Source: Gemmatimonadaceae bacterium
GTDB lineage: Bacteria > Gemmatimonadota > Gemmatimonadetes > Gemmatimonadales > Gemmatimonadaceae
DNA length: 27,317 bases
NCBI GenBank assembly: GCA_040901985.1
Contig: JBBDYC010000010.1
Coordinates: 47,081-74,397 of the forward strand
Direction of reading: 5' to 3'
Part shown: piece by piece, positions 24,001 to 27,317 of the stretch
Position numbering within the stretch: the first letter of the stretch is position 1
Layout: every line of letters starts with the position of its first letter
Program-made: the position numbers

Positions 24001-27000
24001 AGGCGGAGCGTTGGCTCGGGGGTGCCGCGTGAGCGCGTTCGGCGCCCTGGTCGGCGCGGTCACGCGGCATCGCGGCGTGACCGCGTGCCTCGTCGTGGCG
24101 GAGGAGGACGGCATCGTCGTGGACGGGACGGCGCAGATCGGCGTGGACACCGCCGCCTTTGCCGCGCTGACGGCGTCGCTTTACCGCAAGGCGGCGCGCG
24201 CCGCGGCCGCCGCCGGCTTCGGCGCGGTCAGTTTCTGCGAGCTCGAGGCGGAGGACGGGCGGGTGTTCGCCGCCGGACGCAACGGCCTCGTCATCGTCGC
24301 CGTCGCCGAACCGCGGGTCAACCTCGGGCTGGTGCGCGTCGAACTCCTGCGCGCGGCGGGGGGCCTGTGATCCGCCACTCGCTCGCGGTCGGCTGGGCCG
24401 ACGCGCCGCTGAAGCGGTTCGTCGATGACGCGCGGCTGCAACTCGCGATCCTGATGCAATCGAGCGGGCAGGTCCTGGCCCAGGTGGGCTTCAAGCGGTC
24501 GCTCGACGTGCAGACCGCCTGCGCGCTCTCGGCGGCGATCAATGCGTCGGCCGAGCATCTCGGCACGATGGTGGACGGGACGCCGTTCCGCGGCCTGCAC
24601 TACGGGGGGAAGACCCGCCAGATGTACCTCGGACAGGTGCCGCTCAGCGGGACGATGCTCCTCGTGCTCGCCGTCTTCGACACCGAGAGTTCGCTGGGGA
24701 TCGTCCAGCTCTACGTCAAGGAACTGCAGGCGGCCGCCGCGGCGGCAGCGCCGGCACCGACCGACGACGCGCCGGCGCTCGCCGAGAACTTCGAGCAGGA
24801 CCTGAATCGCAACCTCGCTCAACTGTTCGGGAGGGGCTGATGCCCGTCACGGTCCTCCACCATTCACCGACCCCACCGTGAGCCTCGTCAACTACGCGAC
24901 CCGCGAGATCACCTGCAAGATCGTCTACTACGGCCCGGGGCGGTCGGGGAAGACGACCAACCTGCATTACATCCACGGCCAGGTGCCGGGCGACCGCAAG
25001 GGGCAGATGGTCTCGCTCGCCACGCAGACCGACCGGACGCTCTTCTTCGACTTCCTGCCGATCGACCTCGGCGCGATCTCGGGATTCACCACGCGCTTCC
25101 AGCTCTACACGGTGCCCGGCCAGGTCTACTACCAGACGACGCGCAAGCTGGTGCTGCAGGGTGCCGACGGGGTGGTCTTCGTCGCCGACAGCCAGTCGCG
25201 CCAGCTGCAGGAGAACATCGAGTCGTTCCAGGACCTCCACGCGAACCTCGCCGAGCAGGGCGTGGACGCGCGGACGATGCCGCTCGTGATCCAGTACAAC
25301 AAGCAGGACCTCCCGCCGGAACTGATCACGCCGGTGCCGGAGCTCGAGGAGGCGCTCAACTTCCGCGGCGTGCCGTCGTTTGCCGCCGACGCCCTGCACG
25401 GCCCGGGGGTGTTCGAGACGCTGCGCGGCATCTCCGAGCTGGTGCTGCGCAAGCTCAGCGCCGGCCGAGGCGGCTGACGTGCGCCTGGATCCGCGGCTGA
25501 CGTTCGAGCGGTTGGTGGTCGGGGCGGCGAACCGGATGGCCGCCGCCGCCGCGCGCGCGGTGGCCGAGGCGCCGGGCACGACCTACAACCCGCTCTTCAT
25601 CTACGGCGGATCGGGCCTCGGCAAGACGCACGTGCTCACCGCGACGGCGCATCTGCTCACCGCGCTGCAGCCGGCGGCCGAGGTGCTGGCGATGACGCTC
25701 GACGAGTTCTCCGAGCAGTTTCACGCCGCGGTGAGCGCCGGCGAGACGACGTCCTTCGGCGGCCGCCTGGCACGGGTGGACCTTCTCCTGCTCGACGACC
25801 TGCAGTTCGTGACCGGCCGGCGGGAGATGCAGGCCGAGCTGCTGCGGCTGTTCACGACGATGCAGGAGGAGGGCCGCCAGATCGTCTGCGCGTGCGACCG
25901 GCCGCCGGCCGAGATCGCCGATGTGGACGAACGGCTGATCGGCCGCCTGGCCGGGGGCCTCGTGGTGGACGTCGGCCTCCCCGAATACGAGACGCGCGTC
26001 GCGATCCTCCGCGCCGCCTGCGCCGAGCGGGAGATCGAGGCGCCCGAGGAGACGCTCGCCGCGCTCGCCGAGCGCGAAGTCGCGAGCGTGCGCGAGCTCC
26101 AGGGGCGCCTCAACGCCTGGGTCGCGCAGGACGCGATGGGCGCGCGTCCGGGTGCCGCACCGACGCCGACACCGGGCGACACCGCCGCGCTGCGGCCGTC
26201 GGGCGAGTTCCAGAGCTTCCTCTCCGACGTCGCGGCGGTGGTGCAACAGCAGGTCGAGTCGTGGCAGGTGCGTCTGCGCGAGGTGATCGCCTACTGGAGG
26301 GGCGAGGGATACCGGACCGCTGTACTGGAGCGGGCGCTTGGCCTGCCGAAGGACCCCGACGTCCAGGCGCTGGTGGCGATGTACGTGCAGGCGGTGGACC
26401 ACCTGCGCGCGCTCGAGGCCGAGGCGACGACGGTGGACCGCGCGCTTGGCGGCCACGAGCTCTTCCGCGACCCCGAACGGCTGAAGGAGGCGGAGGACCT
26501 GCTCGAGAAGGCGCTCGCCGGCGAAATGCCGCCTGGCGGCCCGAACCCCGCGTTCACGCGCGACGGCTTCGAGCTGGGCACGGCCAACCAACTCGCGGTG
26601 CATTCGGCCGACGCGGTGATCGCGGCGCCGGCGACGCGCTACAACCCGCTCCTCATCACCGGCCCGAGCGGGGTCGGGAAGACCCACCTCCTGCACGCAA
26701 TCGGGAACGCGATCGCGATCGCGTCGGAGGGGCGGATTGCCGTCGCCTGCGTGCACGCGCAGACGCTGGTGGACGAGTTGATCGCGGCAATCCAGGGCGG
26801 GACGGTGGAACGGTGGCGGTCGCGCTACCGCGCGGCCGGCGCGCTGTTGGTGGACGACGTCCAGTTCCTCGCCGGCAAGGAACGCACGCAGGACGAGTTC
26901 TTTTTCGTCTTCAACGCGCTCGCCGAGGAGGGCAAGCAGATCGTCCTCTCGAGCGACCGGCTGCCATCGGAGATCCCCGACCTGGCGGCGCGGCTTCGGT

Positions 27001-27317
27001 CGCGCTTCGAGGGCGGGCTGGTGGCGGAGATACAGTCCCCGGACCGCGCACTGCGCGAGAAGCTCGCGTCGCGCTTCCTGGCCGGCCTTGGCCGGCCGGC
27101 GCCGCCGGAACTGCTCGACGTGGTCTGCGACTCGCCGGTGCAGAGCGTGCGCGAGCTGATCGGGCTGGTGAATCGGCTCGCCGCGGCGGCCGACGCGCGC
27201 GGGATGGGTCTCGACGCGGCGCTGGCGCGCGACGAACTCGGACTCGGCGCCCCCGCGCCCGCCCCCCAGGCGCCCCCCGCCGCCCCCCCCCCCCCGCCCC
27301 CCCCCCGCCCCCCCCCC

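Follow-up and report, generated by a model that had tools for sequence, protein, structure and literature searches.

What is a DnaA-like ATPase doing in a gene cluster otherwise made of chemosensory and MglA-type polarity genes, and with which protein does it work? The question is raised by a locus of a Gemmatimonadaceae bacterium, which we analyzed in a window of 27,317 nucleotides (assembly GCA_040901985.1, contig JBBDYC010000010.1, positions 47,081 to 74,397); all genes described in the window lie on the plus strand. A divIVA-ileS-lspA-rluD block (10182..16012) precedes the chemosensory genes CheW, CheA and CheC/CheX (15792..19503), which are followed by genes encoding a large TPR protein of 907 aa (19500..22223), a DUF4388 (PATAN) protein of 327 aa (22220..23203), a TPR + Roadblock/LC7 protein of 279 aa (23193..24032) and a Roadblock/LC7 protein of 113 aa (24029..24370), all four recognized by Pfam. 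Then come an MglB-like protein of 157 aa (24367..24840), which gives no Pfam row and matches the NCBIfam MglB model NF052242 at E 4.9e-5, below the cut-off, and MglA1, a cluster-type MglA of 199 aa (24878..25477), identified by Pfam and with M. xanthus MglA 5ymx as its best PDB match (E 6.8e-74).

The ATPase gene, named tDnaA here for tandem DnaA-type AAA+ protein, begins with a GTG codon at position 25479, 1 nt past the mglA stop, and is free of stop codons up to the window end (25479..27317; 613 codons, 3'-open). As the initial annotation had stated, it crosses a 10-N gap (contig positions 74398-74407) beyond the window. It ends 34 codons after the gap in another frame, and its stop codon and the starting ATG of a DUF4388/TPR gene overlap. 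This downstream gene, PATAN-TPR, had been called PilZ-like; in fact its N-terminal domain is DUF4388, that is PATAN, in Pfam, and no PilZ row appeared. PF14332 was recognized at E 6.5e-36 in the orthologue from the same-genus genome G254 and at 3.7e-38 and 5.8e-40 in orthologues from family f7; the copy of this genome is 87% identical over its first 239 aa, and the upstream PATAN protein shares 37% identity with the N-terminal PATAN-TPR domain. Outside the window, as seen in G254, the PATAN-TPR gene is followed by CheR, CheB and a second CheW, and the locus as a whole sits between divIVA-ileS-lspA-rluD and mraW-ftsI.

The protein starts with a first DnaA domain-III module, M1 (25479..26138, aa 1-220), defined by Pfam, alignment and an orthologue model with pLDDT >90. 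A GEFxxFLxDV motif (26202..26231, aa 242-251) marks the beginning of the first helix of a helical linker domain (26208..26516, about aa 244-346), which also carries the conserved W..W..EGY.T..LE and FRDPxRxxEAE. A second domain-III module, M2, occupies 26541..27248 (aa 355-590) and is followed by a disordered, Pro/Ala-rich spacer (27249..27317, aa 591-613), after which a conserved C-terminal tail (...FLDRERVVWEWADVGGRLIEELR) lies beyond the window. No RNA run is among the sequencing runs listed for the locus, and the contigs of the one DNA run, which may be the source sample itself, do not span the 10-N gap; for this genome the length of the Pro-rich spacer is therefore approximate.

Two domain-III modules and the lack of domains I, II and IV had been proposed before, and our searches agree. 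Pfam Bac_DnaA (PF00308) matches tDnaA twice (whole-protein E 7.5e-100, 332 bits against a cut-off of 23), the best stretch being aa 357-516, profile positions 3-161 of 162. No DnaA_N row was found in the Pfam and NCBIfam scan, the chain starting right at domain III; no Bac_DnaA_C row was found in the Pfam scan of tDnaA and of the complete orthologues L036 and L038, and the row does appear for a true DnaA (P0204) scanned in the same way. NCBIfam TIGR00362 is covered only at profile positions 103-318 of 437. Genome-wide, PF00308 has exactly three matches, namely the real dnaA, M1 and M2. Over 210 aa, M1 and M2 share the 36% identity first reported, and the real DnaA, encoded on contig C2, is 41% identical to M1 and 42% to M2, close to the 40% given earlier.

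The structural comparisons lead to the same assignment. Each module superposes on solved DnaA domain III (Foldseek; rmsd 1.3-2.5 Å), as with 8bv3_A at 1.3 Å over 218 columns and 40% identity; 2z4r, 3r8f, 1l8q and 2hcb are further matches. The monomer model of an orthologue has a pLDDT of 89.1 and a pTM of 0.53, so that the arrangement of M1 and M2 is undefined; in searches with this model (pTM 0.53), tandem unfoldases of the p97/Cdc48 and Rix7 type ranked below DnaA (TM 0.22-0.31, rmsd 15-20 Å, about 620-670 columns). The linker domain, folded alone, reached a pLDDT of 73.7 and is left without fold assignment because its best Z of 5.6 against 48,161 chains equals the noise level for helical bundles; an atlas search with the linker region gave no usable match.

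Both modules carry the Walker motifs previously attributed to them. In M1 these are GxxxxGKT at aa 43-50 (K49) and hhhhDD at 102-107 (D106, D107), and the alignment to E. coli K-12 DnaA adds sensor 1 D140, box VII R152, Arg finger R156 and sensor 2 R205. The corresponding elements of M2 are GxxxxGKT at aa 395-402 (K401), hhhhDD at 456-460 (D459/D460), sensor 1 D493, box VII R505, Arg finger R509 and sensor 2 R558, aligned in the same way.

Compared with DnaA, tDnaA thus shares a module that matches Bac_DnaA end to end with all these ATPase elements, and differs in having two modules per chain without domain I/II or the DNA-binding domain IV, in adding a helical linker domain and a C-terminal tail predicted to be directed to TPRs, and in its Che/Mgl/PATAN context, with a separate full-length DnaA on another contig. 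In public annotations it nonetheless appears as 'chromosomal replication initiator protein DnaA' or as 'DnaA/Hda family protein', the first name arising because the two modules jointly pass the TIGR00362 cut-off (451 against 343.9 bits). Hundreds of public records bear this name, and origin prediction as well as surveys of gene content in the phylum can be misled by it. Hda is a single module that works with the sliding clamp. Hda/HdaA resembles tDnaA in being a DnaA domain-III paralogue without a DNA-binding domain; tDnaA differs by its tandem structure, its gene context and a phyletic pattern tied to PATAN-TPR. The N-terminal end of tDnaA lines up with the beginning of DnaA domain III, and the Hda models NF005982, NF051883 and NF006571 score far below their cut-offs, TIGR03420 reaching 137.7 bits against a cut-off of 194.8.

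The distribution of the gene was determined in 300 sampled genomes of the phylum with a threshold of E<=1e-60, at which 190 are tandem-positive. The gene had been regarded as order-wide and confined to families f1, f2 and f4; it is found, within the order, in 52/69 genomes of f1, 119/125 of f2 and 3/3 of f3 and, within the class, in 5/6 of f4, 10/47 of f7 (11 counting G299) and 1/4 of f8, and at this threshold it is absent from f5 (0/1), f6 (0/23), f9 (0/3) and the other classes (0/19). In a module tree (quick LG+G4, 45 rows; L038, L041 and L043 were dropped, only one module having been recovered), M1 and M2 fall into two distinct clades that branch in parallel, both well supported (SH-aLRT 99 and 92), and the DnaA of the phylum forms a third. 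The tree, in which the DnaA rows from outside Gemmatimonadota were taken from a pattern-biased scan, gives no firm order among these clades, so we make no claim on duplication after a single recruitment.

A contig scan with the distant member P0153 recovered one tandem relative, from a Gemmatimonadetes MAG, together with 15 ordinary DnaA genes, and a metagenome scan with P0186 gave no match. Among related DnaA-module proteins, P0181 and P0186 are fused to a PilB-N-type MshEN domain and P0239 carries a C-terminal receiver domain, which we count in favor of a scaffold function. P0188, with TPR repeats and a DnaA module, was not counted as a fusion, since its contig measures 3.8 kb and the gene call may result from read-through. 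A distant relative, from the Gemmatimonadetes MAG J002 (L068), speaks against a tail-anchored scaffold: its tandem protein follows a large TPR gene, has a different C-terminus and is without PATAN-TPR downstream.

These observations bear on the idea that tDnaA regulates replication, co-oligomerizing with DnaA domain III or capping it in an Hda-like way and so coupling initiation to polarity or to the division site. The idea draws on the identity of 41-42% to the genome's DnaA domain III, on the retained Arg finger, box VII and sensor 2, on M2 keeping the residues at the H, AID-1 and B positions (I435, R451, R469) that DnaA uses for ssDNA binding and oligomer contacts, on the lack of an Hda-like third PF00308 gene in this genome and on the place of the locus between divIVA-ileS-lspA-rluD and mraW-ftsI. 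M1, however, is altered at the same positions (H82, A98, E116), the Hda model stays below its cut-off, the relatives are fused to MshEN and receiver rather than to replication domains, and the tandem gene was not found in 110 of the 300 genomes, all but two of which give matches at DnaA level or better. Eight genomes, moreover, have deleted both modules while retaining the tail. We consider a role in replication highly improbable.

The invariant partner of tDnaA is the downstream PATAN-TPR gene and not mglA. It lies directly 3' of the tandem gene in 44/44 foreign genomes examined; the tDnaA stop and the PATAN-TPR start overlap or abut in 10 of the 15 loci measured and are <=10 nt apart in 14 of them. 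The phyletic pattern is nested in the same sense: in the sample of 300, all 190 tandem-positive genomes are PATAN-TPR-positive, and PATAN-TPR is absent from 88 of the 110 tandem-negative ones. The other 22 have PATAN-TPR but fall below the tandem threshold, and in 16/16 examined a tail-bearing ORF abuts the PATAN-TPR gene. Eight of these 16 encode micro-proteins of 60-75 aa, reduced to the GEFxxFL helix start and the tail (genera g4 x5, g9, g17 and g21), and six have single-module forms (G084, G282, G105, G272, G049, G203); G299 is a divergent full tandem and G109 lies at a contig edge. In 14 genomes, therefore, one or both ATPase modules are deleted with the tail-bearing ORF still abutting PATAN-TPR.

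The tail kept throughout this deletion series follows the pattern F-L-x-R/S-E-K-x-V-W-x-W-P-x4-R-x-I-E-E and is, outside the P-loops, the best-kept part of the protein (E615 36/39, K/R616 36/39, W621 37/39, E630 35/39, E631 34/39). The hypothesis that it binds the TPRs was drawn from the alignment ahead of any complex prediction. The prediction then made with cognate proteins of G254 (PATAN-TPR 1-538 and tDnaA 240-633) gave ipSAE values of 0.80, 0.80 and 0.79, against 0.00 for the highest of 3 controls; the mark is reached by 116/157 solved complexes and 2/215 mismatched pairs, a calibration that is only rough as the prediction ran on alignments of our own. The runs share at least 70% of contacts, the partner pLDDT is at least 77, and the confident interface comprises only tail residues 598-632 against TPR residues 257-494. 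The tail is thus predicted to dock in the TPR groove of PATAN-TPR. The PDB contains many TPR-peptide complexes, and resemblance to these may account for part of the score. Two observations count against the docking: conservation of the predicted TPR contact residues exceeds that of the rest of the TPR region only marginally and not significantly (0.61 vs 0.56; one-sided Mann-Whitney p = 0.067), and PATAN-TPR in the micro-protein lineages is shortened at its C-terminus (426-477 aa vs 538-573) and is without some predicted contact positions.

The predicted arrangement recalls a familiar one, in which the C-terminal EEVD motif of Hsp70/Hsp90 docks on the TPRs of Hop. In tDnaA, too, a short acidic C-terminal peptide, ending in I-E-E-L/H-R, follows a disordered spacer and is placed by the model in a TPR groove; unlike EEVD, this is a longer motif, rich in Trp (VWxWP), which would span about seven TPR helices.

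Could tDnaA instead be a direct effector or regulator of MglA, binding its GTP or GDP form and belonging primarily to the MglA switch, with the link to PATAN-TPR secondary? The initial annotation, which saw a DnaA-derived ATPase recruited to this switch within a conserved mglA block, was right in that the gene lies in a Che/MglAB cluster, with mglA directly upstream in 37/44 genomes. An MglA-family GTPase accompanies every tandem-positive genome sampled (189/190 at E<=1e-40, the exception, G106, having a 37%-identical MglA beside the gene), and an earlier complex prediction with MglA gave weak support (ipSAE 0.39). Moreover, GEFxxFLxDV is one of the two pieces retained by micro-proteins that lost both ATPase modules, and GEFxxFL makes no confident contact with PATAN-TPR in the complex prediction. 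The motif must therefore have a different partner, with MglA or MglB as candidates. The block is nevertheless not the constant element: in family f7, tDnaA and PATAN-TPR come directly after ileS-rluD, with no Che/Mgl genes (7/7 loci), and the single MglA of these genomes, about 3.5 Mb from tDnaA where measured (G223), is an orthologue of the second MglA paralogue of our genome and not of the cluster MglA. G052 has lost the cluster mglA and keeps MglB, micro-protein and PATAN-TPR; G072 is without the whole Mgl block and keeps CheA, CheC/X, micro-protein and PATAN-TPR; and MglA is present in 42/110 tandem-negative genomes. A primary function in the MglA switch appears to us rather unlikely.

The deletions also invite the opposite view of the ATPase, in which the AAA+ modules are relics without a nucleotide-dependent role and the protein is a mostly passive spacer, acting solely as an adaptor by means of its two short motifs. 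In fact, the repeated loss of one or both modules shows that the ATPase is dispensable in some lineages, which counts against an ATP-gated scaffold; micro-proteins replace tDnaA in four genera, six further genomes have single-module forms, and only 30/49 family members retain the M1 Arg finger. In the same 49 members, which reach down to about 30% identity (positions in orthologue numbering), the Walker residues are on the contrary invariant or nearly so in both modules (K49 49/49, D106 49/49, D107 47/49, D457 48/49, D458 44/49), both sensor-2 arginines, R205 and R556, are each kept in 45/49, and the M2 Arg finger is kept in 43/49. The separate M1 and M2 clades with their parallel branching imply long purifying selection on both, and we regard a mostly passive spacer as improbable.

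The explanation that we favor, with modest confidence, is that tDnaA acts as an ATP-gated scaffold tail-anchored to the PATAN-TPR adaptor in an MglA/Che polarity circuit, probably that of a type IV pilus. The two domain-III modules joined by the helical linker would form the ATP-binding scaffold; the flexible Pro/Ala spacer and the conserved C-terminal peptide of about 22 aa would anchor it in the TPR groove of PATAN-TPR, whose gene is translationally coupled to that of tDnaA. On a pure analogy with DnaA, ATP would be expected to bring about Arg-finger contacts of the head-to-tail kind, M1 closing on M2 in one chain or polymerizing between chains, and the nucleotide state would set the conformation or the clustering of the adaptor. 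The adaptor would in turn be part of the MglA/MglB/Roadblock and Che circuit, which most likely sets the polarity of type IV pili. For a pilus-type output this genome has six matches over the cut-off to T2SSE-family ATPases; flagellin gave no match in it.

This output is suggested by systems of other phyla. In the available text of bioRxiv 10.1101/2021.06.11.447907, PixE of Synechocystis binds PilB1 and PilC through its PATAN domain, and PATAN genes frequently have MglA/MglB genes nearby; in that of PMC7519303, MglA and the TPR effector SgmX of M. xanthus act on type IV pili. The likeness to PatA-type PATAN regulators and to the Myxococcus MglA-SgmX system consists in a partner made of PATAN (DUF4388) and TPRs and in a Che-like system beside the GTPase module; it differs in that PATAN is fused here to TPRs and not to a receiver domain. 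The available text of these two sources and our literature searches contained no mention of a DnaA-type ATPase in either system. Nor did the searches find a published description of the tandem DnaA family; subscription journals and supplements, such as table S2 of PMC4316618 on MglA neighbourhoods, could mention the neighbour.

To our knowledge, the DnaA/initiator AAA+ fold has so far been known from DNA transactions only. A wider reading, which we put forward tentatively, is that exaptation of this fold has given bacterial cell polarity a nucleotide-gated assembly switch: two modules with a helical spacer between them might close or polymerize head-to-tail on ATP and cluster the PATAN-TPR adaptor at the pole through the Trp-rich C-terminal peptide, under MglA/Che control, the same module-spacer-module design recurring with MshEN and receiver fusions in other lineages. 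If true, the scaffold would offer a directly testable handle, consisting of one peptide, one TPR domain and four Walker or Arg-finger mutants, and cultured Gemmatimonadota exist, among them Gemmatimonas and Pseudogemmatithrix spongiicola, whose orthologue is 82% identical. We know of little on the partners of PATAN outside cyanobacteria, and the MglA/PATAN polarity toolkit would gain an ATPase and a defined peptide-TPR tether. tDnaA would then be the first DnaA-type ATPase to act in something other than replication, loading or transposition, and would widen the repertoire of initiator-clade AAA+ proteins.

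The tandem gene, tDnaA, opens with a GTG codon 1 base past the mglA stop, at window position 25479, and runs on the forward strand to the window end (613 codons in the window); beyond it the gene spans a 10-N gap, which no public contig bridges, and has 34 more codons to its end, ...FLDRERVVWEWADVGGRLIEELR, with a stop overlapping the ATG of the DUF4388/TPR gene (PATAN-TPR; PATAN is DUF4388). Two Pfam matches to the DnaA ATPase domain (E 7.5e-100 for the whole protein) are accompanied by no match to DnaA_N or to Bac_DnaA_C, the DNA-binding domain, as the initial annotation had claimed; its motif positions were also correct. 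In the whole genome PF00308 is found in three stretches only, the true dnaA on contig C2 and the two modules of tDnaA, M1 and M2. Identity is 36% between the modules, and 41% (M1) and 42% (M2) between each of them and the true DnaA. The NCBIfam DnaA equivalog covers only profile positions 103-318 of 437, and its summed score of 451 bits tops the curated cut-off of 343.9; for this reason relatives are named 'chromosomal replication initiator protein DnaA' in public sources. A regulator of DnaA or of replication is one rival reading. We rate tDnaA as an initiator-clade AAA+ paralogue, new in its architecture, tether and context; searches of full texts, subscription literature and the supplementary neighbourhood table of PMC4316618 excepted, gave no description of a tandem DnaA domain-III protein or of a DnaA-type ATPase placed with MglA and PATAN.

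A structure model of a complete orthologue, P0016 of Pseudogemmatithrix spongiicola (82% identical; 49-sequence alignment), has a mean pLDDT of 89.1 and a pTM of 0.53. M1 takes up residues 1-219 and M2 about 355-585; between them come disordered residues (222-254) and a linker domain made of helices (243-344, pLDDT >90 inside the full model), and M2 is followed by a Pro/Ala spacer, also disordered (589-607), and by a C-terminal tail that is short and has a pLDDT of about 60. Solved structures of DnaA domain III superpose on both modules, B. subtilis 8bv3_A with an rmsd of 1.3 A across 218 columns, followed by 2z4r, 3r8f, 1l8q and 2hcb; the linker domain modelled alone gives no structural match above noise (best Z 5.6). 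Residues were mapped by alignment to E. coli K-12 DnaA, with roles as given in a review (PMC5742627), and all catalytic positions are present in M1 and in M2: the Walker A Lys (K49 and K401), the Walker B Asp pair (D106/D107 and D459/D460), Sensor 1 (D140 and D493), the Box VII Arg (R152 and R505), the Arg finger (R156 and R509) and Sensor 2 (R205 and R558). A hydrophobic or basic residue is retained in M2, but not in M1, at the DnaA H-motif (E. coli V211; M1 H82, M2 I435), AID-1 (R227; A98, R451) and B-motif (R245; E116, R469) positions. Among 49 members, with identity down to about 30%, the Walker residues are invariant or almost so, the sensor-2 Arg is found in 45 in each module, and the Arg finger in 43 for M2 and 30 for M1. 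tDnaA is a two-module DnaA-type protein, a putative ATPase with intact nucleotide-site residues.

Window proteins were mapped onto foreign loci by tblastn. PATAN-TPR lies directly downstream of the tandem gene in 44/44 foreign genomes (the unpublished G156 among them); the tandem stop and the PATAN-TPR start overlap or abut in 10 of 15 loci and are at most 10 nt apart in 14. Immediately upstream there is an MglA-family gene in 37/44; the seven loci without it are all the loci examined of f7, another family of the class, which lack Che and Mgl genes and read divIVA-ileS-(rluD)-tDnaA-PATAN/TPR. In the window, by comparison, rluD and the tandem gene are separated by the Che/TPR/PATAN/Roadblock/MglB/MglA block. 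Of the fixed mglA-tDnaA-DUF4388/TPR block proposed previously, the downstream side holds and the upstream side fails in f7. Five f7 genomes tested have one MglA each, away from the tandem gene (about 3.5 Mb off in G223), orthologous to the second paralogue of the window's genome and not to the cluster MglA (64% vs 56-59% identity). This second paralogue (contig C16:15373-16047, reverse strand, outside the window) is 51% identical to the cluster MglA and has an insertion of about 30 aa; both paralogues are present in most genomes of f1 and f2, two families of the same order.

The cluster as a whole is flanked by divIVA-ileS-lspA-rluD and mraW-ftsI (window 10182-16012; L062:1-2033 in the same-genus genome G254) and is placed inside an extended division and cell-wall region. 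The listed CheW ORF (15792-16448) overlaps the rluD end, and its true start is probably later because the Pfam match begins only at aa 84; the cheW-cheA interval (16448-16892) has no annotated gene, and a frame tried in it runs into a stop codon. A 3.3-kb contig from DNA run X1 matches the PATAN-TPR start (L004:3429-3540, contig C10) with 12 differences in 112 bases; the sample seems to contain a related strain or species that also has the locus.

Full-length tandem relatives comprise dozens of 50%-identity cluster representatives, with identity down to 31%, and more than 100 90%-clusters at 60-89% identity; all those with an organism name are Gemmatimonadota. One 300-genome sample of the phylum, including four unpublished genomes (G156, G181, G057 and G096), was scanned separately with tDnaA (E<=1e-60), MglA (E<=1e-40) and PATAN-TPR (E<=1e-60). 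In this order, positives within the same order were 52, 69 and 65 of 69 genomes in f1, 119, 124 and 123 of 125 in f2, and 3, 3 and 3 of 3 in f3; within the same class they were 5, 6 and 5 of 6 in f4, 0, 1 and 1 of 1 in f5, 0, 2 and 0 of 23 in f6, 10, 22 and 11 of 47 in f7, 1, 4 and 4 of 4 in f8, and none of 3 for each query in f9; in the other classes (f10-f12) each query was found in 0 of 19. A divergent tandem recognised later in G299 brings tDnaA in f7 to 11/47. The gene, previously described as order-wide, is common in the order but not universal there, and is present in other orders of the class as well. Related genomes are not independent samples, and the co-occurrence counts for PATAN-TPR and MglA are patterns and not statistics. 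Every one of the 190 tandem-positive genomes has PATAN-TPR, and among the 110 tandem-negative ones 88 have neither gene. The MglA pattern is looser: 189/190 tandem-positive genomes have it, yet so do 42/110 tandem-negative ones, and in G106, the sole apparent exception, an MglA of 37% identity adjoins the tandem gene. A direct partner of MglA, the rival reading closest to the recruitment to the MglA polarity switch suggested initially, has on its side this near-constant company and against it the f7 loci. The tandem gene is translationally coupled to PATAN-TPR and phyletically nested within its range.

Past the variable Pro/Ala spacer, the alignment contains a tail motif, F-L-x-R/S-E-K-x-V-W-x-W-P-x4-R-x-I-E-E, retained even in f7; in 39 sequences E615 is conserved in 36, K/R616 in 36, W621 in 37, E630 in 35 and E631 in 34. 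Since a conserved motif is combined with a coupled TPR gene, the tail was expected to be a TPR ligand. As N gaps interrupt both genes in the window's genome, the cognate pair of G254 was used for complex prediction (PATAN-TPR 1-538 with tDnaA 240-633, that is linker, M2, spacer and tail). The ipSAE was 0.80, 0.80 and 0.79, against 0.00 for the best of three controls; the mark is reached by 116/157 solved complexes and 2/215 mismatched pairs, a calibration that is rough here because of custom alignments. Runs share at least 70% of contacts, with partner pLDDT of at least 77, and the confident interface joins only tail residues 598-632 and TPR residues 257-494; the linker domain and M2 make no confident contact with PATAN-TPR. 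The prediction supports binding of the tail to the TPR domain, where it would dock along the groove, and the score may be raised by resemblance to TPR-peptide complexes already solved. No significantly higher conservation is seen at the predicted TPR contact residues than in the remaining TPR region (p = 0.067).

A natural deletion series is offered by 22 sampled genomes that are PATAN-TPR-positive and below the tandem threshold. In all 16 examined, the start of PATAN-TPR is directly preceded by an abutting ORF that ends in the tail motif. Eight of these ORFs (G036, G047, G052, G217 and G227 of genus g4; G072 of g9; G113 of g17; G167 of g21) encode micro-proteins, about 60-75 aa long and built from the beginning of the linker helix (~20 residues, GEFxxFLxDV...), a short variable stretch and the tail. 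Six are single-module forms, M1-linker-tail in G084, G282, G105, G272 and G049 and one module straight to the tail in G203; the remaining two are the divergent full tandem of G299 and G109, truncated at a contig end. Deletion end-points vary between genera, so reduction likely happened more than once. G052 has lost the cluster mglA and retains MglB, micro-protein and PATAN-TPR, and in G072 CheC/X directly precedes micro-protein and PATAN-TPR. In micro-protein lineages PATAN-TPR is C-terminally shorter (426-477 vs 538-573 aa) and without the predicted contact positions D465, G491 and E493; the g4 micro-protein is also without the F-L-x-R-E-K half of the tail, modelled against those last TPR repeats. 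Judged from a partial contact list, the two half-sites may have been reduced together. The g4 PATAN domain is shortened as well (L054, L057; tblastn match of 561 nt vs about 720 elsewhere) and appears to be without the central helical insertion, and in G113 (L055, about 6775-6895) ~5 direct copies of a 15-nt unit separate the micro-protein stop from the start of PATAN-TPR.

The conserved tail outlasts all reductions: the series shows that the family core is the tail together with adjacency to the PATAN-TPR gene, that the GEFxxFL helix start, which makes no confident contact with PATAN-TPR in the G254 prediction, is a second selected element, and that the ATPase modules are an add-on dispensed with in some lineages. 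That tDnaA is a passive spacer is the rival reading nearest to this dispensability, and against it stand the nearly invariant Walker residues of both modules.

In the module tree M1 (SH-aLRT 99), M2 (92) and DnaA of the phylum (94) form one clade apiece, with their mutual order left unresolved, and the M1 and M2 clades have parallel internal branching. The modules of a 697-aa tandem DnaA protein from a distant low-GC lineage (L068; Gemmatimonadetes MAG J002, 49% GC), encoded 25 nt past a large TPR gene (898 aa), branch outside both clades; that locus (2241-7055) has no PATAN-TPR downstream, no MglA nearby and three downstream ORFs without a Pfam family. Some representatives of the 50%-identity clusters have other fusions. 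P0181 (1990 aa) and P0186 (1876 aa) begin with an MshEN domain of the PilB/GspE N-terminal type, followed by two DnaA modules that are separated by ~1200 aa of acidic helical repeats with a recurring 'GAEKYA' unit; their modules look nearer to true DnaA than to M1 or M2. P0239 (738 aa) is an f7-like tandem with a C-terminal receiver domain replacing the tail and a degenerate M2 P-loop. P0188 (TPR array and DnaA module) was set aside as a possible read-through call on a 3.8-kb contig. Between L069 and L070, whose records are labelled Akkermansia and Kiritimatiellia, the DnaA domain-III sequences hardly differ (branch lengths 0.001 and 0.011), which points to faulty labelling or binning of one of the two.

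In DnaA the Arg finger of one module senses ATP bound to another (PMC5742627); by analogy, nucleotide binding in tDnaA could close M2 onto M1 or join chains head to tail, and the PATAN-TPR adaptor tethered to it would then be spaced or clustered differently. PATAN domains are presented as output modules binding the pilus motor (bioRxiv 10.1101/2021.06.11.447907), and another study reports PATAN genes often neighboured by MglA/MglB genes (PMC4316618). Searches of this genome match several T2SSE-family ATPases and no flagellin; on this ground, and by analogy with other phyla, the output is likely to be type IV pilus polarity under the adjacent Che system.
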